Assembly (NCBI GenBank): GCA_014896355.1
Contig: JADBKO010000005.1
Location: 34,286 to 98,285 of the forward strand
Length of the DNA stretch: 64,000 bases
Direction of reading: 5' to 3'
Origin: Bacillota bacterium
GTDB taxonomy: Bacteria > Bacillota > UBA5301 > Bu52
A program made the translations under genes and the position numbers. Positions 14,546 through 33,267 of the stretch are shown here, in pieces. How positions within the stretch are numbered: position 1 is the first letter of the stretch; each line of letters starts with the position of its first letter. The notes under the pieces are model-generated. The model saw only the letters and a list, made by a program, of their open reading frames with translations, was not told the DNA's origin and ran no database searches.

Positions 14546-14586
14546 GGAGCGGGCCGGCCACGGGGCTGACCTGCTCCGTTTTTTGT
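14546..14586 (+). terminator. Possible intrinsic terminator after the ABC-2/GldG/DUF4340 operon
   Basis: GGAGCGGGCCGGCC...GCTCC stem followed by GTTTTTTG. Confidence 0.35.
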
Positions 14587-14622
14587 ATGCATGTGTCTGA
14601 TGTGTGTGATGCCTGTTTTCGG

Positions 14623-14665
14623 AGGATAGATCCTGCTTGTGTATAGCACAGGGAGGATATGTCCA
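14623..14665 (+). promoter_or_regulatory. Operator pair A: two 12-bp imperfect palindromes (AGGATAGATCCT and AGGATATGTCCA), 31 bp centre-to-centre, upstream of the CE7 esterase gene
   Basis: Near-identical architecture and sequence to pair B at 16871-16913 (GGAGGATA..TCCT ... GGAGGATAT.TCCACC ... GCGAAT). The intervening TTGTGT/TTTGTT could be a -35. Confidence 0.45.
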
Positions 14666-14761
14666 CCCAAGAGCGAATAGAGCTTAACAAGATTGCGGGT
14701 TTCAGTGCAAACGTGTACTTGGGAGCACCCTACACCCTGAAAAAAAGGGGGCCTTGCTTTA

Positions 14762-15745
14762 GTGGCTGGAATAGATATGGGGCCGGAACAGCTGCGGCAG
14801 TATAAACCGGCGCTGACGCGCGAGCCCGACTTTGACCAGTTCTGGGCGGACGCCCTGGAGGAGTCGAACCGGGAGCCGCTGGCGGCGGAGCTGACCCCGC
14901 TGCCGTACAGCGTGCCCGGCCCGCGCATCTACCGCCTATCCCTGGCTGGGCTGGGCAGAGTCCGGCTGGCCGGATATTATCTGGTTCCGCCGGGGACCGG
15001 CCCCTTTCCAGCCCTGGTCTTCTATCACGGCTACGGGATGGACAAAGGCGCCATTGCCGATTACTTGATGTGGCTGTGCCAGGGCTATGTCGTGGCAGTG
15101 CTGGATGTGCGCGGCCAGGGCGAAAGCCAGGATTCCGGAACCAGCCCAGTGGGCGGCGGAAATGTGGCGGGCTATATGGCCAAGGGGATCGAGAGCCCAG
15201 CCAGCTACTACTATCGCGGGGTCTATGTGGACACTGTGCGCCTGGTGCGTTTTGTCCAGCAACGCCCGGAGGTGGATCCCGTCCGAATCGGCGTGACCGG
15301 CGGCAGCCAGGGCGGCGGTTTGGCTTTGGTGGCAGCGGCCCTGAGCGGCGCAGCGGCTGTGGCCGTGAGCGAGGAGCCATTTCTGTGTCATTTTCAGCGT
15401 GCCATCGACATCGCCTTGCAGGGGCCGTACCTGGAACTCCAGGAGTACCTGCGCCGCCACCCTGAGCGTACGGAAGCCACCCTGCGGACCCTGAGCTATT
15501 TCGACGTGATGAACTTGGCGGAGCGGGTTCAGTGTCCGGTGCGGATGTGCGTGGGTCAGATGGACGACGTCTGCCCTCCGTCCACCGCTGCTGCCGCTTT
15601 TAACCACTTGGGCGGCGCCGGGGAGAACGTCCTGGATATCTATCCCTTCAACCGGCACGACGTGTGGGGTTACCCCGCCAGCAAGGAGGCAAACATCGTT
15701 TTTCTGCAGCGCCATCTGCATCCACAGGGAGCCTGGGCGCGCTGA
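14762..15745 (+). CDS. Acetyl xylan esterase / cephalosporin-C deacetylase (CE7, Axe1 family)
   Basis: N-terminal FDL-like MAGIDMGPEQLRQYKP, GxSQGG nucleophile (GGSQGGGLAL) and a C-terminal H in FNRHDV, consistent with the CE7 catalytic triad. Confidence 0.85.
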   Translation: MAGIDMGPEQLRQYKPALTREPDFDQFWADALEESNREPLAAELTPLPYSVPGPRIYRLSLAGLGRVRLAGYYLVPPGTGPFPALVFYHGYGMDKGAIADYLMWLCQGYVVAVLDVRGQGESQDSGTSPVGGGNVAGYMAKGIESPASYYYRGVYVDTVRLVRFVQQRPEVDPVRIGVTGGSQGGGLALVAAALSGAAAVAVSEEPFLCHFQRAIDIALQGPYLELQEYLRRHPERTEATLRTLSYFDVMNLAERVQCPVRMCVGQMDDVCPPSTAAAAFNHLGGAGENVLDIYPFNRHDVWGYPASKEANIVFLQRHLHPQGAWAR

Positions 15746-15787
15746 AGTACGGCGCAATGTCACATGACTGCGGAGGGGGCGTTTGGC

Positions 15788-16762
15788 ATGCCTCGAGGGC
15801 GTATATCGACTGAGGACATCCTTGCGGAGGCGGCGGAGAAAACCGTCCGCGCCCGGCCGCTGCTGGCCCGCATCCCTAGCCATTTGGCTGGTTTGACGGG
15901 TTCCGAGCGCAAAGTGGCGCAGGTGGTGATTCGCCAGCCGCAGCAGGTGGTCTATAGTTCCGTTACGGAGTTGGCTGCTCTGGCGGAAGTCGGGGAGACT
16001 ACAGTCTTGCGGTTTGCTCGCAAGCTCGGCTACCGGAACTACCAGGATTTCAAGATGGACCTGGCGCGGGATGTCTTTTCTGAACCCTCCGCCAACGGGA
16101 TCGGCATGTTGGCGGGCGAGTCTGCGGCTGGGGGCCCGGCGCATCAAGGCGGCGAGGCGGTTCCGGGGCAGGGGGGCGCGGCGGAAGCCGGAACGGTGGA
16201 TGTCCTGGCCAAGGCCACGGAACGGAATCAGCGGGTCATCATGGATACTTTCCGCGTCCTGGACCGCGCTGCTTTCAACCGCGCAGTACAGATCCTGGCC
16301 GGTGCCCACCATATCCATTTCTATGGGGTGGGGCATTCCGGGATCACCGCGCACGATGCGCATTACCGGTTTCTCCGTTTGGGCTTCCCGGTGAGCTCCT
16401 TTTCCGACCCTCACTTTCAGACCATGGCCGCGGCCACTCTGGCCGAGGGGGACGCCGCTGTGGGGCTTTCCGTCTCCGGCAGCACGAAAGACACGGTGGA
16501 ATGCCTCCAGATTGCCAGGCGGCATGGAGCCAAGACCATCGCCATCACCGGCTATGCCCAGGCTCCCATTGTGCGGGAAGCGGACGTGGTATTGCTGACC
16601 GCCACGCGGGAGTCGCCCCTGGAATCGGGATCCTTTACCTCCAAGATCGGCCAGCTGCACATGCTGGACCTTCTTTGCGTCGCCCTGGTGGGGCTGCACC
16701 CGGATGCAGTTCGCCGCCAGCAAGAGAACGTGGCAGAGGCCATTTCGTCCAAGCTTTTCTAA
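15788..16762 (+). CDS. RpiR/MurR-family transcriptional regulator (HTH_6 + SIS domain)
   Basis: N-terminal HTH (LTGSERKVAQVV...SVTELAALAEVGETTVLRFARKLGY) and a C-terminal SIS domain (FYGVGHSG). ATG 15788 has a GGAGGGGG SD; an alternative ATG lies at 15764. Confidence 0.85.
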   Translation: MPRGRISTEDILAEAAEKTVRARPLLARIPSHLAGLTGSERKVAQVVIRQPQQVVYSSVTELAALAEVGETTVLRFARKLGYRNYQDFKMDLARDVFSEPSANGIGMLAGESAAGGPAHQGGEAVPGQGGAAEAGTVDVLAKATERNQRVIMDTFRVLDRAAFNRAVQILAGAHHIHFYGVGHSGITAHDAHYRFLRLGFPVSSFSDPHFQTMAAATLAEGDAAVGLSVSGSTKDTVECLQIARRHGAKTIAITGYAQAPIVREADVVLLTATRESPLESGSFTSKIGQLHMLDLLCVALVGLHPDAVRRQQENVAEAISSKLF

Positions 16763-16870
16763 GGCCCCGCTTGGCCGTATAGACCCTGGTTCATAGACGG
16801 CACTGTGTACGCACGGCTGTGGCGGCGGCGGGGGTGGGACCCAGGGGGAAAGCACTCTGTTTGCTGCTGG

Positions 16871-16913
16871 AGGATAACTCCTACATTTGTTAGGAAGCAG
16901 GAGGATATATCCA
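16871..16913 (+). promoter_or_regulatory. Operator pair B: AGGATAACTCCT and AGGATATATCCA (contains the perfect palindrome GGATATATCC), 31 bp centre-to-centre, between rpiR and nanE
   Basis: Same two half-site pairs, spacing and flanking GCGAAT as pair A. It lies in the rpiR-nanE intergenic region. Confidence 0.45.
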
Positions 16914-17000
16914 CCTGGATGGCGAATCTATCTCGCGTAGCGGAGTCTCAAAGCGGATAGGAGGCAGCAGACAACGAACTCAGCTTCCTTCGGCCCAACG

Positions 17001-17849
17001 TTGGGCGGCGGGAAAACACAGCAGACGCTGAAACTCTCCCTTGCGAAATCCTCTGCCGCCGCGGCAGCTTCGTCCCCGGGACAGGGCTCGCCTTTCCCGG
17101 CCGCTCACGTCCGGGTGGCGCCGGGACTGGAGCCGCTTAGGGGCGGGCTCATCGTGTCTTGCCAGGCACTGCCGGACGAGCCCCTGCATAGTTCGGCAAC
17201 CATGGCGCAGATGGCCGTGGCGGCTTGGCAAGGCGGAGCCGCAGGCATCCGGGCCAATTCCGCGGTGGACATCGCGGCCATCCGCCAGGTGATGCCTTTG
17301 CCGGTCATCGGGATCGTGAAGCGCGACTATCCGGATTCGCCGGTGTACATTACTCCCACCTTCGCTGAGGCGCGGGAAGTGGTGGAATCCGGAGCGCACA
17401 TCCTGGCCGTGGATGCCACGCAGCGGCCCCGGCCGGGAGGATTGTCGCTGGCTGACTTGGTGGCCCAGATCCGCCGGCACTTTGCCATCCCTCTGATGGC
17501 GGACGTGAGTTCCGTGAGCGAGGGAATCGCCGCGGCGCAATTAGGGTTTGATGTGGTATCCACCACGCTGGTGGGCTATGCCGGCGATCACGAACCACTC
17601 GGTTACGAGCCGGATTTTGCCCTGATCCGGGAGATGGTGGAAGCGGTCACCGGCCGCTACGGCACTCCGGTCATCGCCGAGGGCCACATCTGGGAGCCGG
17701 TGCAGGCCCGGCGGTGCCTGGAACTGGGCGCCTATGCCGTGGTGGTGGGAAGCGCCATCACGCGGCCGCAATTGATCACGGAGCGGTTTGTCCGGGAGAT
17801 GCAGGGAAAGGCGGGAGCCGGGCGCCCCTCTGAGTGTCGCGAGGCGTGA
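17001..17849 (+). CDS. nanE: N-acylmannosamine-6-phosphate 2-epimerase
   Basis: LEPLRGGLIVSCQALPDEPLH...GIRANS, typical NanE. The first ~38 codons from the TTG at 17001 are low-complexity, so the true start may be near GTG 17115. Confidence 0.8.
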   Translation: MGGGKTQQTLKLSLAKSSAAAAASSPGQGSPFPAAHVRVAPGLEPLRGGLIVSCQALPDEPLHSSATMAQMAVAAWQGGAAGIRANSAVDIAAIRQVMPLPVIGIVKRDYPDSPVYITPTFAEAREVVESGAHILAVDATQRPRPGGLSLADLVAQIRRHFAIPLMADVSSVSEGIAAAQLGFDVVSTTLVGYAGDHEPLGYEPDFALIREMVEAVTGRYGTPVIAEGHIWEPVQARRCLELGAYAVVVGSAITRPQLITERFVREMQGKAGAGRPSECREA

Positions 17850-17959
17850 AGCAGGCGGCGGGCGTTGCGTAGGGCGGTGCGGGTGCGTCCGGGCGGACCA
17901 TCCCGGCTACGGGCGGTGCAGACGCATCCGGAAGCGTTCGGCCAAGGGGGGTTTGACAC

Positions 17960-18970
17960 ATGGGACGCTGTGCTGTGGGGCTGGATATCGGTGGCACGAA
18001 GATCGCTGTTGGAGTGGTGACGTTGGACGGACAGATCTTCTGGCGCAGCCGCCGCGAGACCCCGGTGCGGCTGGGAGCCGAGGCTGTGGCACAGGCTGTC
18101 TGTTCGGCCGCGGAAGAGGCGGTACGGGCCGCCGGCGCTGCCGGCCTGCAGCCTGAGGCCGTGGGAATCGCCACAGGCGGCCAGGTGGACCGGCTCCAGG
18201 GCAGAGTGGTCAGTTCCACCCGCGTCTTGCCGGGATGGGAAGCCATTGACCTGCGCACCCGCGTGGCAGAGGCCGTGGGGCTGCCGGTGCAGATCGACAA
18301 CGACGCCAAGGCCATGGCCCGGGCGGAGCTGGCCTGGGGTGCCGCCCGCGGAGCGCAGACCGCTGTGTTCTTGACGCTGGGCACAGGAGTGGGCGGTGCG
18401 CTGGCGGTGAACGGTCGCGTGGTCGACGGCCAGCGGGGTTTTGCCGGGCATCTTGGGCATATCCCGGTCACTTCGGTCACTTCGGACGGCCCGGTCTGCA
18501 GCTGCGGAAACCGCGGCTGTTTGGAAGCCTACGCCTCCGGCACGGCCATCGCCGCCCTGGCCCGGGCCCGTCTGGCAACCGAACGGCCCCCGGCGGCGGC
18601 GACACCGGAGCCGGCCCCGGACGCCAGCGCGGTTTTCGCCGCGGCGGCGCAGGGGGCCCCCTGGGCCCGTTGGGCGCTGGATCAGGCCCTGGCAGCCCTG
18701 GGCGCGGCTTTGGCCGGACTGGTCCATGCCCTCAATCCCGAAGTGATCGTGATCGGCGGCGGGCTCAGTAGCCAGGGCGAGCCGTGGCGCCGGTCCATAG
18801 AAGACGCCGTCTTTCGCCGCGTCATGCCCGCCTTCCGGAGCGGGCTCTCCATCCGGCTGGCGGCGCTGGGCGGCGACGCAGGCTTGGCCGGGGCGGCACT
18901 GCTGGGAGCTGGGTGGGATCGGGTGGATGCACCGGATCCCGGGAATTCCGGAAAGGAGTGGCGCGGATGA
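17960..18970 (+). CDS. ROK-family sugar kinase (N-acetylmannosamine / N-acetylglucosamine kinase-like)
   Basis: GLDIGGTKIAVGVV ATP motif, and a ROK signature with the zinc motif CSCGNRGCLE. Confidence 0.85.
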   Translation: MGRCAVGLDIGGTKIAVGVVTLDGQIFWRSRRETPVRLGAEAVAQAVCSAAEEAVRAAGAAGLQPEAVGIATGGQVDRLQGRVVSSTRVLPGWEAIDLRTRVAEAVGLPVQIDNDAKAMARAELAWGAARGAQTAVFLTLGTGVGGALAVNGRVVDGQRGFAGHLGHIPVTSVTSDGPVCSCGNRGCLEAYASGTAIAALARARLATERPPAAATPEPAPDASAVFAAAAQGAPWARWALDQALAALGAALAGLVHALNPEVIVIGGGLSSQGEPWRRSIEDAVFRRVMPAFRSGLSIRLAALGGDAGLAGAALLGAGWDRVDAPDPGNSGKEWRG

Positions 18971-20517
18971 AGCCACTGGAACAGGCCGCAGATGGCGGCA
19001 CCTATCCCGTCATCGTGGTGGGCGGCGGGACTGCCGGAGCGATGGCGGCTGTGGCTGCCGCCCGCGGTGGAGCCCGAACTCTACTGATCGAGGAGAACGG
19101 CTATCTCGGCGGGACAGCCACCGGAGGGTTGGTGACGCCGTTCATGTCCAACCGGATCCCGGCGCGATCGTTGCCAGCGGCGGAGCGAGCTGCGCAGAGA
19201 GATGCCGGCGGCTCCGGCCCCTCCCCGGCGGATGACGGCGCGGTCAACCTCAATCGCGGCCTTACCGACGAGCTGAAGGCCAGGTTGGCGGCGATCCAGG
19301 CCGGGGCCGCCACACCCGACAACGATGGCTGGTTCGACCCGGAGGGAATGAAGTTCGTATTGGAGGACATGGCCCTGGAGGCCGGTGTCCAGCTCCTCTA
19401 TTACACGCGCTTTGTGGATGTTTTGACCGCTCCTGCGGCCGCAGAGGCGGGGACCGCCTCCGGAGCGGGGGAGCAGAGGCGTCGTATCACCGGGATCGTG
19501 GCGCACACCCCCGCGGGGTTCGTGCGATTCGGGGCGCAAGTGGTCATCGACGCCAGCGGTGATGCGGACGTGGCCGTGGCTGCCGGTGTTCCTTGGCGTT
19601 GCGGAGGCCCATCCGGGCAGAGACAGGCCCTCTCCGTGCGCTTTATCGCCGGCGGAGTGGATCTAGAGGCGCTGGCCCGGTTCCTGCGAGAATTGGGCGA
19701 TCCTGCTTGGCCTGATGGCTTTCTGGAAATGGCCATGGTCTGGGGGCGCGGCTTCAAACTGGAGCCCCTCTTCCGCCGGGCCGTGGAGGCCGGTGACCTA
19801 CTAGAATCTGATGGGGATTACTTCCAATGTTTTACGCTGCCGGGCCGCCCCGGACAGCTGGCTTTCAACTGCCCCCGCATCGCCACGCAGGTGGATGGCA
19901 CCAACCCCTGGGATCTGACCCACGCCCAGATCGAGGGGCGTCAGGCCATCCGGCGGTTGATGAGCTTTCTGCGCAAGTATCTGCCCGGATGCCAGCAGGC
20001 GCATGTCCTCGAGGTGGCACCCATGGTCGGGGTGCGGGAGAGCCGGCGGATTGTGGGCGATTATGTGCTGACCCTGCAGGATGTGCTGCAGGCTCGTAAG
20101 TTTTCCGATGCAGTGCTGCGCAACCGGTACCCCGTTGACATCCATTGGGTCCAGAATTCGCCAGCGGGGAAAGCCTCGGAGACTGTGGACTCGGCGCTGC
20201 AGACTGCGGGCCGGGTCCCGGAGCCGGAGGAGCCGGAAGTGTTCCACCACCCGGGTTTTCTCCCCGAAGGCGCGTACCACGAGGTACCGTATCGCTGCTT
20301 GCTGCCCCGGGGCATCGAAGGCCTGCTGGTGACAGGGCGGTGCATTTCCGCCACTTTTGCGGCCCAGTCCGCCATTCGTATTCAGCCGAACTGCCATTCC
20401 CTGGGGCAGGCGGCCGGGACAGCGGCCGCGTTGGCCGTAGAGGCCGGCATCACACCGCGGCAAGTGGACGGCGTCCATTTGCGGGAAGTTTTACGGTCAC
20501 AGGGGGCCTGTCTATGA
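18967..20517 (+). CDS. FAD-dependent oxidoreductase (pfam12831-like), copy 1
   Basis: YPVIVVGGGTAGAMAAVAAARGGARTLLIEENGYLGG dinucleotide-binding motif. ATGA overlap with the ROK gene and an AAAGGAG SD. Paralog of 33268-34770. Confidence 0.8.
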   Translation: MKPLEQAADGGTYPVIVVGGGTAGAMAAVAAARGGARTLLIEENGYLGGTATGGLVTPFMSNRIPARSLPAAERAAQRDAGGSGPSPADDGAVNLNRGLTDELKARLAAIQAGAATPDNDGWFDPEGMKFVLEDMALEAGVQLLYYTRFVDVLTAPAAAEAGTASGAGEQRRRITGIVAHTPAGFVRFGAQVVIDASGDADVAVAAGVPWRCGGPSGQRQALSVRFIAGGVDLEALARFLRELGDPAWPDGFLEMAMVWGRGFKLEPLFRRAVEAGDLLESDGDYFQCFTLPGRPGQLAFNCPRIATQVDGTNPWDLTHAQIEGRQAIRRLMSFLRKYLPGCQQAHVLEVAPMVGVRESRRIVGDYVLTLQDVLQARKFSDAVLRNRYPVDIHWVQNSPAGKASETVDSALQTAGRVPEPEEPEVFHHPGFLPEGAYHEVPYRCLLPRGIEGLLVTGRCISATFAAQSAIRIQPNCHSLGQAAGTAAALAVEAGITPRQVDGVHLREVLRSQGACL

Positions 20518-22076
20518 CGGCAGAAATGGTGGTGGCGGAAGCGGGAAAACGGTTCCCGCGCCGCAACATTCTCTGGATCGATGCCACGGCCAATCTGCCC
20601 ACCACTCATCATCGGGACGGTATGGCGGCGCTTTTGGACCGGGCTGCAACAGCCGGCTTTACGACTGTGGTGGTGGATGTCAAGCCGCCCAGCGGCGAAG
20701 TTTTATACGCCAGCCGGCTGGCCCCTCGTCTGGAACAGTGGGAGCCCGGAGTTGAGCTTCCCCGCGGCTATGACCTGCTGGCCGTGGCTGTGGAAGAGGC
20801 GCGGAGCCGTGGACTGGAGGTCCTGGCGAGCCTGAATGTTTTTTCGGAGGGCTATCGGCAGCATGGGCGTCTGCGCGGAGCCCTCGTGGCAGATCCTGCC
20901 CGGGCGGGCTGGGAATGCGTGGCTTACTCTGCTGCCGGTTTGCGGGACGCGGCGGATGCAGGGCTGCCCGGGGCCGTGGACGGCGGTACGCAAGGCGGAA
21001 TCCAGCCGGCAATGGCGCCCGCGTTGGCTCCCATGACCCGGTTCCACGGCAAGGACTGGGCTTTCGTGAATCCTGCCTTGCCCGAAGTCCAGGGGTACGA
21101 GCTGGCGTTGCTGGAGGAAGTGGCCAGGGGCTATCCGGTGGATGGCGTGATTCTGGATCGGGCGCGCTATACCGGACTGGATACGGATTTCAGCCCTGCC
21201 AGCCATGCCGCGTTTTGCCGCTTTGTGGGGACGCACGCGAAGCGCTGGCCGGAAGACGTTTATGAGATTGTGCCGGCACCTCATGCTTTCCACGCCGGGG
21301 CGGGGGACGGCCAAGGGAAGCCGGAACGTGAAACGGAGGAGGGGGCGCTGCTACGCACCTCGGAGGGCGTTTGGATCCGCCCTGGGCCTTTGTTCGGCCC
21401 CTGGCTTCTTTGGCGGGCTCAGGTGATCCATGATTTCGTGGCTGCCGCCCGCCGGCGGGTCAAGGCTGCCCGGGCCGACGCCTTGTTCGGCATCTATGCG
21501 GGCTCTTGGTTCCCCTCCTACTACGAGTTGGGCGTGAACTGGGCCAGCAGCCGTTTCCGCCGGGATGCGGTGGCTTCGCCCGGTCCTGTGCCGCCGGGCT
21601 ACGAGGCCACGGGCTACGCGGAGGAGCTGGACCTGTTCCTATCTGGCAACTACTACCCGGAGGTTTGGGAGGAAGAGGTCACCCAAGGCCTGCCTGAGAC
21701 GGCGCAGCGGGAGCCCGGACAGCCGCCTCAGCGCACCTGGTGGTATTCTGTGGCGGGCGCGGCCCGGATGGTGCGCCACGTGACCGGGCATGTGCGGCCA
21801 ACCTACGGGAGCCTTTATCTGGTGCAGTATGAGGATCATCCTGAGCGCTTGGGCGAGGCCGTCCGGGCTTGCCAGGAAGGCAGCGATGGCGTCATGATCT
21901 TCGATTCCAGCCACCTGGATCGGTTGCAATGGTGGGAGGCTTTAGGTGCCGCGATCCGCGCCGGTCTGGGGGCCGGAGCGCCAGGCGGCAGCGGTGAGGG
22001 TCGGGACGGAGGCTCCCAGGGCAGCCATACGGGCGGTACAGCCCAAGGAGGCGCAGAATATGCCCCAGCGAGATGA
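20514..22076 (+). CDS. Putative glycoside-hydrolase-like protein (GHL10/DUF4015-like TIM barrel) with a Gly-rich C-terminal tail
   Basis: The N-terminal pattern ILWIDATANL...AGFTTVVVDVKPPSGEV resembles the YngK/GHL10 family. ATGA overlap with the upstream FAD gene. The track ORF is extended upstream to 20145 in the same frame. Confidence 0.65.
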   Translation: MTAEMVVAEAGKRFPRRNILWIDATANLPTTHHRDGMAALLDRAATAGFTTVVVDVKPPSGEVLYASRLAPRLEQWEPGVELPRGYDLLAVAVEEARSRGLEVLASLNVFSEGYRQHGRLRGALVADPARAGWECVAYSAAGLRDAADAGLPGAVDGGTQGGIQPAMAPALAPMTRFHGKDWAFVNPALPEVQGYELALLEEVARGYPVDGVILDRARYTGLDTDFSPASHAAFCRFVGTHAKRWPEDVYEIVPAPHAFHAGAGDGQGKPERETEEGALLRTSEGVWIRPGPLFGPWLLWRAQVIHDFVAAARRRVKAARADALFGIYAGSWFPSYYELGVNWASSRFRRDAVASPGPVPPGYEATGYAEELDLFLSGNYYPEVWEEEVTQGLPETAQREPGQPPQRTWWYSVAGAARMVRHVTGHVRPTYGSLYLVQYEDHPERLGEAVRACQEGSDGVMIFDSSHLDRLQWWEALGAAIRAGLGAGAPGGSGEGRDGGSQGSHTGGTAQGGAEYAPAR

Positions 22077-24018
22077 AGGAAGCACAAGGGGCATCTGTGG
22101 GCAGCTCCGGCGCGTGGCGCTGCTGCCGCTGGATGAACGCCCCTGCAACAGCGTCTATCCGGCCTTGGTGGGACGGGTCGCCGGGGTGGAGGTGGTCGTG
22201 CCGCCGCGCTCCCTGCTGGGGCTGAAGAAGCGTGCCGGAGATCCCCGGGCTCTGGGGGAGTGGCTCAAGGAGCAAGCACAGACCGCCGACGCGCTGGTGG
22301 TGGCTGCCGATACTTTGGCGTTCGGCGGCCTGATACCGTCACGGGTCAGCGACCTGACGCAGGAGGAGGCTTTGGCCAATCTACAGGTCCTGCCTGCAAT
22401 CCACGCGGCGCGCCCAGAGCTGCCCATCTATGCGCACAGCGTGATCATGCGTCTGCCGGCGTACAACAGCGCCGACGAGGAGCCCGATTACTGGGACGAT
22501 TTTGGCGCCCGCCTGCATCTGTACTCGACTCTGCTGGATGCCCTGGACCAGGGCTCACAGGCCTGGGACTCCCTGCGCCAGGCAGGGCTGCTGGCCGGCG
22601 TTGAACAGTGGGCCGCGGCAGCCGGTGCGGGTGCAGGAGGTGCGGAGGCCGCCCGCGGCGGGTGCACCTTCGACCAAGCCCGTAATCTGCGCAGCCGGTT
22701 GGAAGCAGAGATCCCGGCGGAGATCCGCAAGGATTGGCAGTGGCGGCGGCAACGCAACCATGCCCTCAACGAAGTGATGGTCCGCTGGGCCGCAGCTGGC
22801 GTCGTGCAGTTTCTGGCCCTCACCCAGGACGATAGTTCCCCAGTGGGGCTGCCTGCGCGGGAGCAGAGAGCCTTGACGCGGCTTATAGCGGAGACCGGGG
22901 CGTATCGGCGCGTTTTGCTCTATCCCGGCGCCGACGAAGTCGGTATGGTGCTGGTGGCGCGCCTTGTGAACCGGGCCGCCGGCTGGAGGCCCCGTTTCTG
23001 GCTGCGCTTTTCCTCGACCCTGGGGCCTACCGTGGTGCCCCGTTACGAAGACCGGCCGCTGCTGGAAGGGATCAAAGGGCAGGTCCTGGCTGTAGGGGGC
23101 CGGCTGGCAGCGGCACCCCAGGACGCGGATATCCACTTGTTTGTCAACAGCCCCGGCCGCTGGCAGGGTGAAGCGCCGGAGCAGGACCAGCCGGGCGCCG
23201 ACCACGGCGGATGGCGAAACCTGCCGGAATTCCTGCAAAGCCTGGCGGATACGTTGGGCGGAAGCACTCTGGGCGGCCACGAAGGCGCGCACCCGGGGCC
23301 GGCGGATGACGGGCATCCCGCCGCGGTTCCAGAACGTCCGGATGGCCCGGGCCGTTGCCCGCTGGTGGCCCTGGCCGACGTGGCCTATGCCAACGGAGCC
23401 GACCGCGCCCTGGTGGAGATGCTGCCCAGCTATATCTGGCCCCTGGACCTGGCGGCCTATGCGGGCTGGAATACCGCCGGCAACACCCTGGGCACCGTGC
23501 TGGCACATTCCTGTCTGCGACGGGCGGGCCTGAACCTGCCTGCAGGGCTCGAACGCGATGCCGCGGATCAGGCCCACAGGGAGTTTCTGCTGCTCCGTTT
23601 TGCTGAAGACTGGGCCTACCAGGCGGATGTCCGCCAAAAGATGGCGGCGGGCCCAGTGGCGCAGCTGGGAATCTCCCCGTATGAGTTGGGTGCGCATGCA
23701 ACCGCCATTGCGCGGCAGGCTATGGATTCCCTCAACGCTGCTTTGCAGCGTTGGGTGGCGCGGTGGCAGGAGGATAGGACTGTGGGGCCGTTAGGCAGCA
23801 CGGCCGAGCTTGGGATTCAAGCAGGCCAGGGTGCATGGAAAGGAGGGGATGCTGCGCCGGAACGGCAGGGGACGCCGGCGCCAGCCAGGCGTTGCGGACC
23901 GTCCGTTTCGGTGACCGTGGAGGATCTGCAGTTTCCCTGGAACCGCCTGTTTGAGGTTCAACTGAGGGTGCGCGTGGATTCTCAGCATGATCAGAATTCA
24001 ACTACTAAGGAGGAGTAA
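22060..24018 (+). CDS. DUF4127-family protein, copy 1
   Basis: N-terminal LPLDERPCN motif as in DUF4127. Paralogous to 30870-32543 (VPLDDRPCT). AGGAG SD 9 nt before the ATG; the track ORF is extended upstream to 21946. Confidence 0.7.
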   Translation: MPQRDEGSTRGICGQLRRVALLPLDERPCNSVYPALVGRVAGVEVVVPPRSLLGLKKRAGDPRALGEWLKEQAQTADALVVAADTLAFGGLIPSRVSDLTQEEALANLQVLPAIHAARPELPIYAHSVIMRLPAYNSADEEPDYWDDFGARLHLYSTLLDALDQGSQAWDSLRQAGLLAGVEQWAAAAGAGAGGAEAARGGCTFDQARNLRSRLEAEIPAEIRKDWQWRRQRNHALNEVMVRWAAAGVVQFLALTQDDSSPVGLPAREQRALTRLIAETGAYRRVLLYPGADEVGMVLVARLVNRAAGWRPRFWLRFSSTLGPTVVPRYEDRPLLEGIKGQVLAVGGRLAAAPQDADIHLFVNSPGRWQGEAPEQDQPGADHGGWRNLPEFLQSLADTLGGSTLGGHEGAHPGPADDGHPAAVPERPDGPGRCPLVALADVAYANGADRALVEMLPSYIWPLDLAAYAGWNTAGNTLGTVLAHSCLRRAGLNLPAGLERDAADQAHREFLLLRFAEDWAYQADVRQKMAAGPVAQLGISPYELGAHATAIARQAMDSLNAALQRWVARWQEDRTVGPLGSTAELGIQAGQGAWKGGDAAPERQGTPAPARRCGPSVSVTVEDLQFPWNRLFEVQLRVRVDSQHDQNSTTKEE

Positions 24019-24021
24019 AGT

Positions 24022-25284
24022 ATGCGTAAGCTCACCGTAAGGGTTCTCTTGTCGGCAGCGTTGGTTCTGGCTCTCCTGGCCGCCATGGTGCCAACGGGGG
24101 TTCTGGCTGCCGGGAAGACACTGGAGTTTTGGACCATCTCGTTAAGCCCGTTTTTTGACACCCAGATGAAGCAGCTGGCTGCAGACTATGAGAAGGCCAA
24201 CCCCGGCGTCACGGTAAAGTGGGTGGATGTGCCCTATGCGGCCATCCAGCAGAAGTTGCTGTCGGCCATTGCGGCCGGCAATCCGCCCGATGTGGTGAAT
24301 CTGAGCTCGGACATGACCGTCCAACTGTACCAGCAAGGAGCCCTCGCCCCCCTGAGTGATTACGCGCCGGCCAGTGCCTTCAAGGTCTATTTCCCGAAGG
24401 CATTGGATACTTTCAAATTCAACGGCAAGATCTATGGGACCCCGTGGTACTGGGCGCCGAAAGTGTTGGCCTACAACACCGACATTTACAAGAAGGCAGG
24501 GCTGGATCCCAATAAGCCGCCCCGCACTGTGGCAGAGATGATTGCCCAGGCCAAGCAGATCAAAGATAAGACGGGCATGTACGGTTTTATGCCCAACGTG
24601 AACGGGATCAACTTCCTCACCATCTTTCAGGAAGCTGGGCTGCCGATCTTTGACAAGAGTGGGAAAAAGGCGGTTTTCAACTCTCCTGCCCATGTGAAGC
24701 TCCTGCAGGAGTATGTGGATCTGTATAAGCACGACTACTTCCCTGAGGACACTCTGCGCCGAGGCTACCTGGGCGCCACGGAGCTTTACAGCGAAGGAAA
24801 GCTTGGGATGCTGCTGACGGGGCCGCAGTTCCTGATCCGGGTGGAGAAGGACAACAAGGCCGTCTATGACGAGACCCGGGTGGCGGCCTATCCTCTGGAC
24901 AAGGGCCAAGTCACGCATACACCCCTGATGGGCCTCTCGGTCCCCGCCAACGTGCGTGACAAGAAAGAAGCCGCGAAGTTCGCGCTGTTTGCCACAAACG
25001 ACGCAAATCAGCTGGCCTTCGCCAAGGCTTCCAACACGTTCCCCAGCACCATCGCAGCGGCCAACGATCCCTTCTTTACCACGGGTGGGCCTACAGCGGC
25101 GGACCAGGCCCGCATCGTAGATGCAAAGCAGTTGAAGCATGCCAAGGATTTGACAGTGGTGGTTCCGGATGCCTCCAACCTGTTCAAAGCCTTCAAGGAC
25201 AACATCGAGGCAGCTTTCTTTGGCTCCAAGTCGCCGAAGCAGGCTCTGGATGACATTGTACGGGTGTGGAATGCCAGTCTGTGA
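24022..25284 (+). CDS. ABC transporter substrate-binding protein (CUT1, extracellular solute-binding family 1)
   Basis: Signal peptide MRKLTVRVLLSAALVLALLAAM, and an SBP_bac_1-like sequence with GTPWYWAPKVLAYN. Confidence 0.9.
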   Translation: MRKLTVRVLLSAALVLALLAAMVPTGVLAAGKTLEFWTISLSPFFDTQMKQLAADYEKANPGVTVKWVDVPYAAIQQKLLSAIAAGNPPDVVNLSSDMTVQLYQQGALAPLSDYAPASAFKVYFPKALDTFKFNGKIYGTPWYWAPKVLAYNTDIYKKAGLDPNKPPRTVAEMIAQAKQIKDKTGMYGFMPNVNGINFLTIFQEAGLPIFDKSGKKAVFNSPAHVKLLQEYVDLYKHDYFPEDTLRRGYLGATELYSEGKLGMLLTGPQFLIRVEKDNKAVYDETRVAAYPLDKGQVTHTPLMGLSVPANVRDKKEAAKFALFATNDANQLAFAKASNTFPSTIAAANDPFFTTGGPTAADQARIVDAKQLKHAKDLTVVVPDASNLFKAFKDNIEAAFFGSKSPKQALDDIVRVWNASL

Positions 25285-25425
25285 CCACCGAGTTAGCGGA
25301 GGGCCCTGAAGCACGGGCGACCCGAAGAAAGGCGTACAAAGGTTTAGGGGCCGGGCACTCGGCTGCCCGCCTTGGGAGCCGGGGGATGCTCCGGCCCCAG
25401 ACACCCCGGTTGGAGGAAGACGGCC

Positions 25426-27642
25426 ATGAAAATGAAAAAGGGGCAGGTCGAGGCCCTTCTGGTATGGCTTGCCATGATGACGGGTCTAGCCTTTTCTGCG
25501 GGCACATCCCTGGCGGCGGCTGGAGGCGCATCAGCGCCGGCCCCCCTAACGTACGTACCGGCGGCTTACCAGATGCTGCCCCAGCCGGATGTTTGGCCTG
25601 TGCCGCAACGGGCCGTCTATCCTTCGGGGATCCTCCCACTGGCGAGCCTGCGCCTGGAAACTGTGGGGAATGCCCCTCAGATCGGCTACGCCGTGCGGGA
25701 TTTGCAGGACGAACTAAAGGTCAGGTTTGGGACCACACTTCCTGTATTCAATGTCACGAGGCTTGCTACTGCTGAGTCCGGTGCGGCGGGAGCGGTAGAC
25801 CTCGGTAGGGAGGAGTCCGGTTCCACCAGGCCAGGCGCTGCAAAGCCTCTTCCACTCATCATCGGAACCCGGGCGGACGCGGCGTTGGCGGCCAAAGCCG
25901 ATGCGGCCGGCCTCAAGGTGACGCATCCGGAAGGCTATGCCCTCCATGTGGGCCCCGACGGTGCCTGGATCGTGGGGGCTGATCCCCAGGGGGCCTACTG
26001 GGGTGTGCAGACTCTGCGGCAGCTTCTGGCCGTGGATCCGGCAGGTTTCCGTTATGCAGATATCGCGGACTGGCCGGCCTTTCCTCTACGCATGGCCATG
26101 ATCTATTTGGATGCCTATTCGCGCGGGATCAATGACCGGCTCATCCCCATACTGGCGCAATACAAGTTCAACACCGTGCTGATCATGTGCGATTACGTGC
26201 AGTGGGATTCGACGCCCAACATTTGGAATCCGCAGGGGGCCAGCAAGGCGGAAGCCCGGCGGGTGGCGGAGCTGATCCGTTCTTATGGCATGGAGCCGGT
26301 GCCGCTTATTGAGCTGTTGGGCCATGTCCAGTGGATGTTCTATAATGGCCAAAACCAGGACCTGTACCAAGACCCGGAGGCCAGCGAGCCCTTTGCCTAT
26401 GACACCCTGAACCCACGGACGTATGCGGTGGTCGAGGCGGTCCTCCAGGAGGCCGTCGACGTCTTCAAGCCCCGCTGGGTGCATATCGGTCACGATGAAG
26501 TGCGCAACGTGAACCGTTTCCCTGCCCGGCCCAACGGGAAGGCCTTAGGGTTTGAGAGACTTTTCTATGACGACGTCGTCAGACTGCATGATTTCCTGAA
26601 ATCCCGGGGTGTAGCGACCATGATGTGGCAGGATGTGGTTTTCAGCGGGGCCACCCTGCCGCTGGCCCGCGAATTACCGAAAGACATCGTGTTCACCGAC
26701 TGGCACTACACGGCGGCTGAGGATTATCCGTCCATCCGGCAAATCCGGAGTTACGGTTTCCAGGTTGTGGGAGCCAGCTGGGACGGAGAAGACAATCCGG
26801 AGACCTTTGCCCGCAGTGCCCTTAGGGACGGCGCTTTGGGCATGCTACAGACCCGTTGGACTGGATATTTCGGTAATCCCAGCATCGTCGATGGACAAGC
26901 TCAGCAGGCCATCGCTTATTTGCGGGCTGGAGCGGCCTTTTGGAATCCGGACGTGGCGCGGGCCCGTGAGGAAGCCATGGCTGTATCGGCACCCGCCCGC
27001 TATTATGATGCTTGGCTGCCTACGCCCTACCGGCCCATTCCCGGCCGCCTGGTGAACCTGAGCGGTTATGCCACCCGGTCCCTGGTGGACCCGGGCGACT
27101 CTGGATGGATCGGCAAAGGCCCAGATTACGACCTGTCCGGCCTGATGCCGCCCAGGGGCACGACCACCGTACGGCTGGGACCCTACCTGTTTCATATTAG
27201 CGGGGCCGTGATGACCCGGGCTGACCGGGGCGTTGCCCGTTCGCTGCCGGCGCGCGTCACAATCCCTTTGCACGCCAAAGCCGCTGCGTTGGCGGCCCTG
27301 AATACGACGGCTTGGGCAGCGCCCGCCGATGGGATGCCGGTTGGGCGGTATGTGCTGACTTATGCAGGCGGCTCGACGCTGGCCGTTCCCCTGACCTATC
27401 AGCGCCAGATCGCAGCCTGGACGGATCCAGTGTTGAAATCCCTGGTACGCTACCCCGCCTGGCGTGGGACGGCCCGAAGCGGTTTGCCCGTGGGAGCCGA
27501 TGTTTTTGTGATCCGGAACCCTCATCCTGAAGAAGAGATTGCATCGTTTACGGTGGAAAGCGCCGGCAATGATGCCAATCCGACGATGCTTGGCTTGACA
27601 CTGCTAGATGCGGCCCCCGTGCCGAAGGAGGTTACACCGTGA
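25426..27642 (+). CDS. GH20-like beta-N-acetylhexosaminidase-family protein (secreted or lipoprotein)
   Basis: Signal peptide MKMKKGQVEALLVWLAMMTGLAFSAG. A GH20b-like N-terminal domain, then a TIM barrel carrying HIGHDEV, a variant of the GH20 H-x-G-G-D-E catalytic motif. ATG 25426 has a GGAGGAAG SD. Confidence 0.6.
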   Translation: MKMKKGQVEALLVWLAMMTGLAFSAGTSLAAAGGASAPAPLTYVPAAYQMLPQPDVWPVPQRAVYPSGILPLASLRLETVGNAPQIGYAVRDLQDELKVRFGTTLPVFNVTRLATAESGAAGAVDLGREESGSTRPGAAKPLPLIIGTRADAALAAKADAAGLKVTHPEGYALHVGPDGAWIVGADPQGAYWGVQTLRQLLAVDPAGFRYADIADWPAFPLRMAMIYLDAYSRGINDRLIPILAQYKFNTVLIMCDYVQWDSTPNIWNPQGASKAEARRVAELIRSYGMEPVPLIELLGHVQWMFYNGQNQDLYQDPEASEPFAYDTLNPRTYAVVEAVLQEAVDVFKPRWVHIGHDEVRNVNRFPARPNGKALGFERLFYDDVVRLHDFLKSRGVATMMWQDVVFSGATLPLARELPKDIVFTDWHYTAAEDYPSIRQIRSYGFQVVGASWDGEDNPETFARSALRDGALGMLQTRWTGYFGNPSIVDGQAQQAIAYLRAGAAFWNPDVARAREEAMAVSAPARYYDAWLPTPYRPIPGRLVNLSGYATRSLVDPGDSGWIGKGPDYDLSGLMPPRGTTTVRLGPYLFHISGAVMTRADRGVARSLPARVTIPLHAKAAALAALNTTAWAAPADGMPVGRYVLTYAGGSTLAVPLTYQRQIAAWTDPVLKSLVRYPAWRGTARSGLPVGADVFVIRNPHPEEEIASFTVESAGNDANPTMLGLTLLDAAPVPKEVTP

Positions 27643-28505
27643 AGCTCCGCAATACCCTGATCGCGTATGGGTTTCTGCTTCCGGCCCTGGTATTGATGGG
27701 GATCTATACGTTTTTCCCCATTGTTTTTGGCACCTATCTCGGCTTTACTGAGTACAACGTCATCACTCCGCCCAGATTTGTGGGCCTGGAGAACTTCCGC
27801 ACCCTTCTTGGCGAAAGCTATTTTTGGTCCGGGCTGTGGAACTCCATCCGCTACATCCTGGTAGTGCCCGTGATTCAGCTGGTATCCATTGCCGTGGCCA
27901 TGCTGGTTAACCGCCAATTACCGGGCATCGGGGGATTTCGGACGGCTTACTACATCCCGGTGGTCAGCAGTTTTGCAGTGGTGGGACTCATGTGGGGATG
28001 GATGTATGACCAGTTCGGTCCGGTGAACTTTGTGCTGAAGACTCTGGGCCTCGTGAAGAATCCAACAAATCTACTGCTTAACCCGGCGCTGGCCTTGTAC
28101 GCGGTCATGTTTGTTACTCTTTGGAAAGGCATTGGGTACTACATGGTTCTGTATCTGGCGGGCCTTCAAAGCATTGACCGGTCGTACGAAGAGGCGGCTC
28201 TGATCGACGGAGCAAACCGCTGGCAGGTGTTCTGGAATGTGACCTTGCCACTGCTGCGCCCCATCATCCTGATCTGCAGCCTGCTTTCTACCATCAGCGC
28301 CATCAAGGTTTTCGAGGAGATCTTCGTGATGACAGGAGGCGGACCGGCAGGCTCTACTTACACCGCCTTGTATTTCATTTATTCTAAGGCCTTCCAGGAC
28401 TTCAAATATGGTGAAGCCGCCGCCGCAGGTTTGGTGGTGGCTGTCGTGAGTTTGTTCTTCAGCATTCTGAACTTCAAGTACACGCGGGGAGGGCAGATAT
28501 CGTGA
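27639..28505 (+). CDS. ABC sugar transporter permease (MalF/UgpA-like)
   Basis: Six TM segments and an EAA-type loop (EAALIDGANRWQVFWNVTLP). Confidence 0.9.
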   Translation: MKLRNTLIAYGFLLPALVLMGIYTFFPIVFGTYLGFTEYNVITPPRFVGLENFRTLLGESYFWSGLWNSIRYILVVPVIQLVSIAVAMLVNRQLPGIGGFRTAYYIPVVSSFAVVGLMWGWMYDQFGPVNFVLKTLGLVKNPTNLLLNPALALYAVMFVTLWKGIGYYMVLYLAGLQSIDRSYEEAALIDGANRWQVFWNVTLPLLRPIILICSLLSTISAIKVFEEIFVMTGGGPAGSTYTALYFIYSKAFQDFKYGEAAAAGLVVAVVSLFFSILNFKYTRGGQIS

Positions 28506-29356
28506 ACGCCAAGGCAATTCGTCGCGCTCGCAAATCCGTACAGACTATCGGCGTATATGCCCTCTTGATCGTTATCGCCGTCATCACGATTTACCCGTTC
28601 TTTTGGACCGTGATCACGAGCTTCAGCGGTTCCGGCGGGATCTTCAAGTTCCCTCCGCCGTTGTGGCCAACGAGTCCAACGCTGGAGAACTATGTCTACG
28701 TAGTGCAAAACGTGCCGTTGGTGCGTTACATTGTCAATAGTGTGATTATTTGCTTCTTCGGGGTCGCTGGCAGTATTTTGGTGGCGACGTTGGGCGGGTA
28801 CCCTTTGGCAAAGATGGAGTTTCCCGGGCGGGATTTCATCTTCGGAGCCATATTGGCTACGCTCATTCTGCCTAACGAGGCGGGTCTGATCGTCAACTAC
28901 ATTACCACCATCAAGCTAGGGCTGTTGAAGTCCGGGCCGGGGCAATATGCGGCCATCATTCTGCCAAGCCTGGCTTCCACCATCGGGATCTTTCTGATGC
29001 GGCAGGCCTACCTGGCCATCCCGAAGGAGCTCCTGGAAGCCGCCCGGGTGGACGGGGCCTCAGAATGGCGGATCTGGTGGCAAATCATGATTCCGCTCAC
29101 AGCTCCCACTGTGGCCGCGTTTGCTATCCTGCAATTCGTGGCCTTTTGGAACTCGTTCCTGTGGCCCATCATTGTCCTGACAGATAAGAGCTACTATCCG
29201 TTGGCCTCCGGCTTGTTGGATCTACAGGGGCAGTTTGCCACCAATACCCGGGCCGTGGCTTCGGGGACCGTCATCGCCATGCTTCCCATCCTGGTCGTCT
29301 TTCTCTTCGGCCAACGCTACTTTATGCGGGGCCTGGAGGGAGCTGTGAAGCAGTAA
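28502..29356 (+). CDS. ABC sugar transporter permease (MalG/UgpE-like)
   Basis: EAA loop EAARVDGASEWRIWWQIMIPL. Confidence 0.9.
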   Translation: MNAKAIRRARKSVQTIGVYALLIVIAVITIYPFFWTVITSFSGSGGIFKFPPPLWPTSPTLENYVYVVQNVPLVRYIVNSVIICFFGVAGSILVATLGGYPLAKMEFPGRDFIFGAILATLILPNEAGLIVNYITTIKLGLLKSGPGQYAAIILPSLASTIGIFLMRQAYLAIPKELLEAARVDGASEWRIWWQIMIPLTAPTVAAFAILQFVAFWNSFLWPIIVLTDKSYYPLASGLLDLQGQFATNTRAVASGTVIAMLPILVVFLFGQRYFMRGLEGAVKQ

Positions 29357-29420
29357 GGCGAGGATCGTGGGGCCTCACGGAGGCTATAAGACCCGGTAAG
29401 GTGGCCTCGAGGCCGAGTTA

Positions 29421-29480
29421 GCCGCAGCCTATCGCCAGGCGCAGCCGTTCGTGCCGGGCATAGGCTGCGGCTTTCTTATT
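29421..29480 (+). terminator. Rho-independent terminator closing the first carbohydrate operon
   Basis: GCCGCAGCCTAT...ATAGGCTGCGGC 12-bp stem followed by TTTCTTATT. Confidence 0.6.
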
Positions 29481-29490
29481 GTCAGGAACC

Positions 29491-29700
29491 GTTGCGTTTC
29501 TGTGCGCAACATGCGCAACGAATTCAGTCTACTTTACGGGCCCAGGAACGCGAGCTTAAATGGCGAAGAAGGAATTACTTCGAGACTGAAGAATATATAC
29601 TGCCGAAGAGACCGGTGGGCGAAGAGTGTTGCTCTGTTGCGCAATAGGTGCATTTGCTTACCCGGGCATGCTTGGGTAGTGCAACAGCCGCGCAACGCAT
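29491..29700 (+). promoter_or_regulatory. Cluster of TTGCGCAA-type palindromic repeats (candidate LacI-family operators) upstream of the LacI regulator gene
   Basis: GTTGCG-N8-CGCAAC at 29491-29510, ATGCGCAAC at 29511-29519, the perfect palindrome TTGCGCAA at 29637-29644, and GCAACAGCCGCGCAACG at 29683-29698. Confidence 0.3.
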
Positions 29701-29729
29701 ACGGCTGGTCTAGGGTTGGAGGTCTGAAG

Positions 29730-30815
29730 GTGCCAAAGCCGAGCCTGCGAAGCATCGCACACGCGATGGGTGTATCTCCCTCTACTGTCAGCCGGGCTCT
29801 ACGGAATAGCCCTCGGATCAGTGAATCCCGCAAGCGACAGGTGCGGGAGATGCTGGCCGTCTACGGTTATCCCCTAGACCCTGCGGCAGGGGAACGTACA
29901 GATGAGCGGGAACGCAGCGCTGTTGCGTTTCTGATCGCCAATCCGCAGGGAAACCTGAATTCGGACAGTTTCTTCACGGAGGTTATCCGAGGGGCGGTTC
30001 GTTTCCTAAACGAAGCAGGCCGATCGCTGTTGGTAGATACGTTGGCCGAGGGGGAGGGGGACCTGACCCGTCAGCTGGAGTCTTTGCTTGCTTCACAGCG
30101 GGTATCGGCGCTGGTGGTCGGCGGCATTCCGCTTCCCGACAGGTGCGTGGAGACCCTGGCCAATGCTTCTGTTCCGGCGGTTTTCATCGGGAAGTACACT
30201 CAGAACCCGTTTCGATTCAACGCCGTTCTTCCCGATAACGTAGAGGGAGGCAGGCTGGTGGGCCTGCACTTGACTGCGTGCGGTTACGAAGAATTCTATT
30301 ATTTCGGCGGCGACCTGCACATCCACACGTTTTCGGACCGGCTAAACGGATACCAACAAGGCTTGAAAGAGTCCGGCGCCCGGCTGCCGGCGGAGAATGT
30401 GCTCATTAGCCCCAGGATCGACCAGGCAGCAGGATACCGGCTGGCCAAGATGCTTCTTAGCCGCCTGACACCGGGCGTGCCTGGGCAGAACCCCGCAAGG
30501 CGCGCCATCTTCGCGGCTACCGACTGGATGGCCGCCGGAGTGCTGCGCGCGTTGGCCGAGGAAGGACGGGCAGTGCCGGAGGAATTTGGGGTCGTCGGAT
30601 ACAGCGACCTGGAGCTGGCTTCGCACATTATCCCTGCCTTAACCACCGTTCGGGTGAACATGGATCAGCTGGGTTACCTAGCGGCTCGGACCGCTGTAGA
30701 CCTGGCCAGCCTGACCCTTGCCGGGCCGATCCAGATCGTCCAGCAACCTGTTTTGGCGATCCGGGAGTCCTCCGCACAGTCCCAGGGCACCGGGAACGTC
30801 CAGGCAGGGGCTTGA
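29730..30815 (+). CDS. LacI-family transcriptional regulator
   Basis: N-terminal HTH (SLRSIAHAMGVSPSTVSRALRN) and a periplasmic-binding-like effector domain. GTG 29730 has a GGAGG SD; the track ORF is extended upstream to 29451. Confidence 0.85.
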   Translation: MPKPSLRSIAHAMGVSPSTVSRALRNSPRISESRKRQVREMLAVYGYPLDPAAGERTDERERSAVAFLIANPQGNLNSDSFFTEVIRGAVRFLNEAGRSLLVDTLAEGEGDLTRQLESLLASQRVSALVVGGIPLPDRCVETLANASVPAVFIGKYTQNPFRFNAVLPDNVEGGRLVGLHLTACGYEEFYYFGGDLHIHTFSDRLNGYQQGLKESGARLPAENVLISPRIDQAAGYRLAKMLLSRLTPGVPGQNPARRAIFAATDWMAAGVLRALAEEGRAVPEEFGVVGYSDLELASHIIPALTTVRVNMDQLGYLAARTAVDLASLTLAGPIQIVQQPVLAIRESSAQSQGTGNVQAGA

Positions 30816-30869
30816 AGACCAGTTGGCTGCTGCGGCCGAAGTGCCACGGCGGGAAGGTGAGATGGGCCT

Positions 30870-32543: not shown

Positions 32544-32553
32544 GGGGATAATC

Positions 32554-33255: not shown

Positions 33256-33267
33256 CGGAGGAAGATC

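Follow-up and report, generated by a model that had tools for sequence, protein, structure and literature searches.

The known effectors of RpiR-family regulators are phosphosugars (PMC13635753; PMC9177960). In Escherichia coli, a MurR tetramer represses murQP and its own gene and is released by N-acetylmuramic acid 6-phosphate (MurNAc-6-P; PMC9177960), and this tetramer has been proposed to bridge two sites, 17 bp apart and covering 47 bp in total, over the -35 and -10 elements (PMC13635753, a secondary source). NanR of Vibrio vulnificus binds two adjacent sites and has N-acetylmannosamine 6-phosphate (ManNAc-6-P) as its effector (PMC13635753). Here we analysed a 64,000-nt stretch of contig JADBKO010000005.1 from a Bacillota bacterium (assembly GCA_014896355.1, positions 34,286 to 98,285 of the forward strand; referred to below as the window), in which an rpiR gene is flanked by two copies of a 47-bp module, each built of two palindromes. 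With a probability of roughly 0.8, we read these modules as autoregulated operators of a NanR-like RpiR tetramer, which would act as a repressor and be freed from the DNA by a phosphosugar, most likely ManNAc-6-P.

The first-pass annotation of the window had described two sites 31 bp apart, present twice, and the sequence reads as stated there: module A contains the 12-bp cores AGGATAGATCCT (14623-14634) and AGGATATGTCCA (14654-14665), and module B the cores AGGATAACTCCT (16871-16882) and AGGATATATCCA (16902-16913), with a gap of 19 nt and a start-to-start distance of 31 bp in both pairs. The unit itself proved to be longer, namely a 16-bp palindrome with the cross-species consensus GGAGGAnATnTCCnCC, which begins 2 nt before the coordinates assigned earlier. 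Each module spans 47 bp (16 + 15 + 16), module A extending from 14621 to 14667 and module B from 16869 to 16915. A GG on the 5′ side, an ACC on the 3′ side and a downstream GCGAAT, all noted previously, are indeed common to both copies, albeit GG and ACC are parts of the 16-bp palindrome and not its flanks. The consensus AGGATA-TATCCT proposed at that stage had to be replaced by GGAGGAnATnTCCnCC, as most relatives carry GGAGA/TCTCC cores, of which the inner GGATA/TATCC seen in the window is a local variant. Sites were scored with a symmetrised 16-bp weight matrix trained solely on sites from other organisms (orthologous loci), giving the following values:

14621..14636, + strand: module A site 1, GGAGGATAGATCCTGC, the distal and weaker palindrome; 14.5 bits with the ortholog-only matrix.
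14652..14667, + strand: module A site 2, GGAGGATATGTCCACC, the proximal palindrome, 31 bp from site 1; 20.2 bits.
16869..16884, + strand: module B site 1, GGAGGATAACTCCTAC; 20.7 bits with the ortholog-only matrix.
16900..16915, + strand: module B site 2, GGAGGATATATCCACC, the best dyad of the window, with 7/8 half-site positions symmetric; 24.0 bits, the maximum across the 64 kb.

These four sites (B2, B1, A2 and A1, in descending order) occupied ranks 1 to 4 in the window, and three of the four exceeded the highest score obtained in 100 shuffles (18.6 bits). Exact matches to AGGATANNTCCW on both strands of the 64-kb window numbered just four, all of them located in modules A and B. The composite pattern GGAGGATANNTCC-N18-GGAGGATATNTCCACC occurred twice against 0.00 occurrences expected from 100 dinucleotide-preserving shuffles, while GGAGGATA was seen six times versus 1.05 expected, with 4/6 occurrences corresponding to module sites. 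The earlier statement that the window holds just two copies was therefore borne out, and both the matrix ranking and the composite count place the motif well away from random frequency within the window.

The spacers of modules A and B are identical at just 6 of 15 positions, which argues that the sites have been kept by selection; recent duplication was rejected on the same grounds as the source of the likeness between the two modules. Lone weak matrix matches at 3662 and 9697, which probably fall inside genes, and at 29588, upstream of a LacI-family gene, were considered as further regulon sites. None of them had a partner at 31 bp, and they were treated as chance matches. A small open reading frame (ORF) starting from an ATG within site A2 (14659) was also rejected, being absent from module B and from the orthologs.

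Orthologous loci were collected on the basis of RpiR proteins 49-76% identical to that of the window and examined with a pattern scan followed by the weight matrix. Scanning of genome contigs yielded 5 loci and scanning of metagenome contigs yielded 12, and the most informative loci came from a search for contigs encoding the ortholog. Rather than being absent from related genomes, an outcome that the first-pass annotation had allowed for, the same module was present in approximately 12 independent Limnochordia-type lineages, in one register and one orientation and with the same 31-bp spacing. It was found in L019/20/21 (RpiR 76% identical), in the Geochorda group L002/L008/L018/L026 (~64-65%), in L022, L023 and L013, in L011, and further in L003 and L007 (site 1 degenerate), in L025 (51%) and in L029 (50%, site 1 weak).

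The layout, anchored on site 1, consists of a weaker 16-bp site 1 (e.g. GGAGCATTTCTCCAAC), a 15-bp spacer, a stronger 16-bp site 2 and a short box 5-6 nt further on. The 31-bp start-to-start distance and the 47-bp span were common to both window modules and to every orthologous locus with both sites. Alignment of 12 loci with MAFFT resulted in 75 columns with zero gaps, in which the conserved columns were those of the two sites and of a GAA-containing box, while the 15-bp spacer and the outer flanks were unconserved. In L002, L008 and L026, site 2 is a perfect 16-bp palindrome, GGAGGAGATCTCCTCC, and site 2 of L022 (GGAGGATATCTCCTCC) differs from it at a single position. A coordinated shift of dyad positions 7 and 10 from one species to the next was considered as additional proof of dimer recognition and then dropped, as the site-2 sequences appeared inconsistent by eye.

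The module was strictly linked to one group of rpiR orthologs. A gene for a regulator with HTH_6 and SIS domains lies beside the sites in the window and in all related loci, the module adjoins the rpiR ortholog in every module-bearing locus, and no module was present at the loci of distant RpiR proteins of 22-38% identity (L004, L005, L009, L010 and L012). At most loci it precedes nanE-rpiR, and in L025 it lies between rpiR and an operon of solute-binding protein (SBP), DHDPS and nanE genes. The nanE gene, encoding ManNAc-6-P 2-epimerase, is a direct neighbour of rpiR in the window, L018, L019, L022, L023, L024, L026 and L029, with a ROK kinase gene in most. Gene order is nanE-rpiR-(ROK...) in nearly all ortholog loci, unlike the window, and a single module was seen at every related locus examined versus two in the window. 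The second module can be explained by the separation of rpiR from nanE: with rpiR now located behind an esterase gene, an additional module would restore its control, i.e. autoregulation.

One locus departs from this arrangement. In L027 (1350-1440), an RpiR ortholog (65%) is encoded beside a GH4 glycosidase and without nanE. It carries a degenerate module in the same register, GGAGCGAACCTCCCGC-N15-GAAGGACGGCTCCGTA followed by GTCGAAT, which may represent a decaying or retargeted operator.

The regulator itself has as its best solved relative V. vulnificus NanR (4IVN, E=2e-32), closely followed by Pseudomonas aeruginosa RccR (8JU9, E=5.5e-32); E. coli MurR is more distantly related (E=4.5e-24 to its SIS domain). 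The source of the window is an uncultured Firmicute of the Limnochordia type. Its RpiR protein is 100% identical to one recorded from a metagenome-assembled Firmicutes genome and 64% identical to RpiR of Geochorda subterranea, and the phosphate loop of the SIS domain (SxSGSTK) is conserved. Across 25 orthologs, the helix-turn-helix (HTH) region is near-invariant (invariant columns 56-95), which fits a common DNA specificity. With 324 aa, compared with 281-298 aa in the orthologs, the window protein is also the longer one: the linker that joins its HTH domain to its SIS domain carries a Gly/Ala-rich insertion of ~30 residues (residues ~100-135), without a counterpart in the alignments to V. vulnificus NanR and P. 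aeruginosa RccR.

Gene content was assigned by Pfam and NCBIfam scans of the window ORFs between 7943 and 34770. All genes lie on the + strand, in the order ATP-binding cassette (ABC)-transporter/DUF4340 operon, module A, esterase, rpiR, module B, nanE and ROK kinase, in agreement with the earlier description of the two copies as flanking rpiR and preceding the CE7 esterase gene and nanE. The operon continues after the ROK kinase with a PF12831 flavin adenine dinucleotide (FAD) oxidoreductase, GHL10/DUF4985, DUF4127, a solute-binding protein, a GH20-like gene and two permeases, reaching ~29356. The features nearest to the modules are:

14560..14579, + strand: terminator-like hairpin, a 7-pair stem followed by TTTTTTG, closing the ABC-transporter/DUF4340 operon that lies upstream.
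14777..15745, + strand: CE7/AXE1 acetyl esterase gene (PF05448, E=1e-91), the first gene downstream of module A.
15788..16762, + strand: rpiR, 324 aa (PF01418 HTH_6, E=7e-20; PF01380 SIS, E=9e-22).
~17115..17849, + strand: nanE, ManNAc-6-P 2-epimerase (NF002231, 293 bits versus a cut-off of 189), the first gene downstream of module B.
17960..18970, + strand: ROK-family sugar kinase, NanK-like and without an HTH domain, the second gene of the nanE operon.

As the hairpin at 14560-14579 closes the upstream operon, module A opens a new transcription unit. The rpiR gene starts 42 nt past the end of the esterase gene; the two are probably transcribed together, in which case rpiR would be autoregulated. 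The start codon of nanE is ambiguous (GTG at 17115 or TTG at 17001), with no good Shine-Dalgarno sequence before either candidate. Use of the TTG would give the product a low-complexity, Ala/Ser-rich N-terminal extension, and with the GTG start the leader past module B would be unusually long (~200 nt, 16916-17115).

The module itself, its symmetry, spacing and polarity, its conservation among species and its strict link to one group of rpiR orthologs are direct observations; from these and from family precedent we infer that RpiR binds the modules as a tetramer, represses, and responds to a pathway intermediate. Each 16-bp palindrome GGAGGAnATnTCCnCC would accommodate one RpiR dimer, and one tetramer (a dimer of dimers) would bridge both palindromes cooperatively. 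Since their centres are 31 bp apart, i.e. ~three helical turns, the two palindromes face the same side of the DNA and a single tetramer can bridge them. Site 2 would serve as the strong anchor and site 1 as the weaker auxiliary. Module A is predicted to control the esterase-rpiR unit, resulting in autoregulation, and module B the operon of nanE, ROK kinase, FAD oxidoreductase, GHL10, DUF4127 and the ABC importer. Promoter occlusion is the most likely mode of the putative repression, and binding of a phosphorylated amino sugar to the SIS domain would lift it; the most likely such ligand is ManNAc-6-P, a product of the pathway. The first-pass annotation had already suggested a dual dyad operator for a dimer-of-dimers RpiR repressor. 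The operator part of this suggestion stood, with conservation in ~12 lineages and a 47-bp, MurR-like geometry, while the sign of regulation is deduced from the arrangement described below.

The position of the modules relative to the promoter was approached through the downstream box and the start codons. The box lies at a fixed offset from site 2 and occurs as GCGAAT, GTCGAA(G/T) or TAGAAT, with GAA kept in all loci:

14673..14678, + strand: box GCGAAT, 5 nt past site A2.
16922..16927, + strand: box GCGAAT, 6 nt past site B2.

It may be a weak -10-like element or an extra contact of the regulator. The -35 element that had been suggested within the spacer (TTGTGT/TTTGTT) was not sustained, as the spacer is unconserved and there is no acceptable -10 at 16-18 nt; from TTGTGT or TTGTTA, the sole A/T-rich hexamer (TATGTC/TATATC) lies 13-15 nt away. 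Placement by hand of a sigma-70 -35 in the spacer or of a -10 inside site 2 was discarded, the spacings being 13-15 nt. The distance from the end of site 2 to start codons preceded by a good Shine-Dalgarno sequence is 38 nt in L023 and 36 nt in L007, which would put site 2 within ~35 nt of the transcription start. Judged by these distances, site 2 would overlap or abut the predicted core promoter, and a location of this kind favours repression by occlusion over activation from upstream.

Several observations weigh against a repressor operator with the properties proposed here. Good dyads in the window are limited to B2 and A1, while A2 and B1 are imperfect. The independent lineages number ~12, not 17, because the members of the Geochorda group (L002/L008/L018/L026) are nearly identical internally, and in L024 (RpiR 54%) no site was found in the short nanE upstream region, with the operon start cut off. 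A strict sigma-70 scan of 14580-14776 and 16763-17115 returned zero promoter-like sites, and most copies of the box (GCGAAT/GTCGAA) do not have the A normally seen at -11. The position of the promoter is a guess, and the choice between repression and activation is therefore a guess likewise. Finally, S. pneumoniae (Streptococcus pneumoniae) NanR is the one known activator of the RpiR family, with an effector that stabilises the tetramer and leaves DNA affinity unchanged (PMC13635753).

The last of these points leads to the strongest competing explanation, in which the same operator is used by RpiR for activation: the tetramer on sites 1 and 2, stabilised and not released by the phosphosugar, would bring in RNA polymerase or hold it at a weak promoter with the GCGAAT/GTCGAA box as a poor -10. 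The precedent of S. pneumoniae NanR, whose tetramers form with ManNAc-6-P (PMC13635753), agrees with this explanation, as do the fixed polarity of the module relative to the downstream gene, the absence of a good detectable sigma-70 promoter from either intergenic region, and the resemblance of the conserved box to the poor -10 typical of activator-dependent promoters. However, every other characterised RpiR regulator is a repressor (PMC13635753), including V. vulnificus NanR, the closest solved relative by sequence. The sites of S. pneumoniae NanR lie ~55 bp upstream of the -35, with just a degenerate half-site nearby, whereas here two full palindromes are found 36-38 nt from the start codons (L007, L023), nearer than activator positions permit. 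We consider activation unlikely on balance and keep it open, because no consensus promoter was detected and the box is a poor -10.

Much less probable is recognition of the modules by another transcription factor, such as the LacI-family protein encoded at ~29730-30815 or a global regulator, or their use as an alternative sigma promoter, in which case the nearness of rpiR would be incidental. Such a reading draws on the indirect nature of the link between RpiR and this DNA and on the presence of a second sugar regulator, of the LacI family, in the window. Besides nanE, however, rpiR is the sole gene family found at every locus with a strong module, while LacI is absent from L018, L019, L023, L025 and L029 and the ROK protein is without an HTH domain. 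Dyad symmetry argues against a sigma element, the motif is unlike the CcpA cre consensus (PMC13635753), and the upstream region of the LacI gene has its own, different palindromic words.

Least probable of all is a transcribed cis-regulatory RNA (a leader, a riboswitch-like element or a Shine-Dalgarno/anti-Shine-Dalgarno hairpin formed by GGAGG...CCTCC), for although the sites, with GGAGG and CCNCC/CCTCC in them, could fold into short hairpins, and the window leaders are long (~110 and ~200 nt), Rfam at E<=1 gave just an irrelevant snoRNA match inside the esterase gene, the RNAalifold consensus of 12 loci reached only -2.8 kcal/mol (covariation term 0.03, one pair with compensatory change), both halves of both sites hold a sequence consensus without compensatory variation, as for protein recognition, no terminator follows the module, and perfect palindromes leave a 0-2 nt centre unfit for a loop unless base pairs are lost.

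The LacI-family gene has surroundings of its own. Behind it lies a second, paralogous DUF4127/FAD-oxidoreductase set (~29730-34770), and its upstream region (29490-29700) contains the repeated palindromic words CGTTGCG...GTGCGCAACATGCGCAACG, TGTTGCGCAATA and GCAACAGCCGCGCAACG, which look like the operator(s) of the LacI-family regulator itself. The lone weak RpiR-matrix match at 29588, GAAGAATATATACTGC, which has no partner 31 bp away, falls within the same region.

Returning to the RpiR operators, the genes predicted to be under their control do not establish a sialic acid regulon, since nanA is missing: neither nanA nor DHDPS was found among the window ORFs at 7943-34770 or in the Geochorda locus L018, and a DHDPS (NanA-like) gene was seen in more distant relatives only (L024, L025 and L028). 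The substrate may instead be a ManNAc-containing glycan, and the genes are more accurately described as a ManNAc-type pathway that includes DUF4127 and FAD-oxidoreductase members. The candidate ManNAc-glycan pathway genes are those for NanE, the ROK kinase, the PF12831 FAD oxidoreductase, GHL10/DUF4985, DUF4127, the GH20-like protein, the ABC importer and the CE7 esterase. A gene set without nanA (nanE, rpiR, ROK kinase, PF12831 FAD oxidoreductase, SBP, permeases and DUF4127) is common to the window (17115-34770) and G. subterranea (L018, 9207-18202), to which the window alone adds GHL10/DUF4985 and the GH20-like gene. Tentatively, and with clearly less confidence than in the operator itself, the module could be taken to define an uncharacterised Limnochordia ManNAc-glycan regulon, in which the two palindromes and the GTCGAAT box would mark an RpiR tetramer touching RNA polymerase at a -35-less promoter.

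General concepts are unchanged by these observations; palindromic operators next to their regulator genes are routinely obtained by comparative genomics and would not surprise a specialist. Their value lies in a concrete predicted 47-bp operator, GGAGGAnATnTCCnCC-N15-GGAGGAnATnTCCnCC, for an uncharacterised NanR-like RpiR clade of the Limnochordia, a class of high-GC Firmicutes that has received little study, and in a handle for delimiting a regulon with DUF4127, DUF4985 and PF12831 oxidoreductases. The module is also a clean natural case of the two-site, three-turn geometry that has been proposed for tetrameric RpiR/MurR repressors and is structurally unresolved, and structural studies of a tetramer-DNA complex could use it as a defined substrate.

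The kind of element is known, as it belongs with the MurR/NanR-class RpiR operators, and this particular operator sequence was not found described in the literature searched. P. aeruginosa RccR and Pseudomonas/Shewanella HexR share the domain architecture of the window protein and have, as is predicted for it, a phosphosugar effector and, in the case of RccR, a tetrameric state. They differ in being repressors of central carbon metabolism, with a 2-keto-3-deoxy-6-phosphogluconate (KDPG)/Entner-Doudoroff/glyoxylate regulon, another operator sequence and no linkage to nanE.

RpiR-type NanR proteins (V. vulnificus, S. pneumoniae and Clostridium perfringens) are similar in the linkage of the regulator to nanE, accompanied in some relatives by nanK and DHDPS/NanA-like genes, and in their near-palindromic operators of 13-18 bp; the V. 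vulnificus and S. pneumoniae proteins both have ManNAc-6-P as effector. The published NanR boxes of S. pneumoniae (TCTGAAASTACTTTCARA) and C. perfringens (GAAAAATATTTTC) do not match GGAGGAnATnTCCnCC. When the C. perfringens box GAAAAATATTTTC is compared with GGAGGATATCTCC, a common layout of purine run, ATAT and pyrimidine run becomes visible, with 8/13 positions identical and all differences being transitions. S. pneumoniae NanR activates from single full sites, whereas each module described here combines two full sites, held in a rigid 31-bp register, with a conserved downstream box.

The operator of E. coli MurR reportedly lies between murR and murQ (Jaeger & Mayer 2008, as summarised in PMC13635753 and PMC9177960), and a repeat finder applied to this intergenic region of strain K-12 showed no obvious repeats. 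Compared with MurR, the sequence of the operator is different, the target here is nanE/ROK kinase/DUF4127 and not murQP, and the module occurs twice and co-directionally as opposed to once in a divergent intergenic region. In other respects the two systems are alike: both have a regulator of the HTH_6 and SIS family and a two-site span of 47 bp (16 + 15 + 16 here), with autoregulation and control of an amino-sugar operon, as predicted for the present locus.

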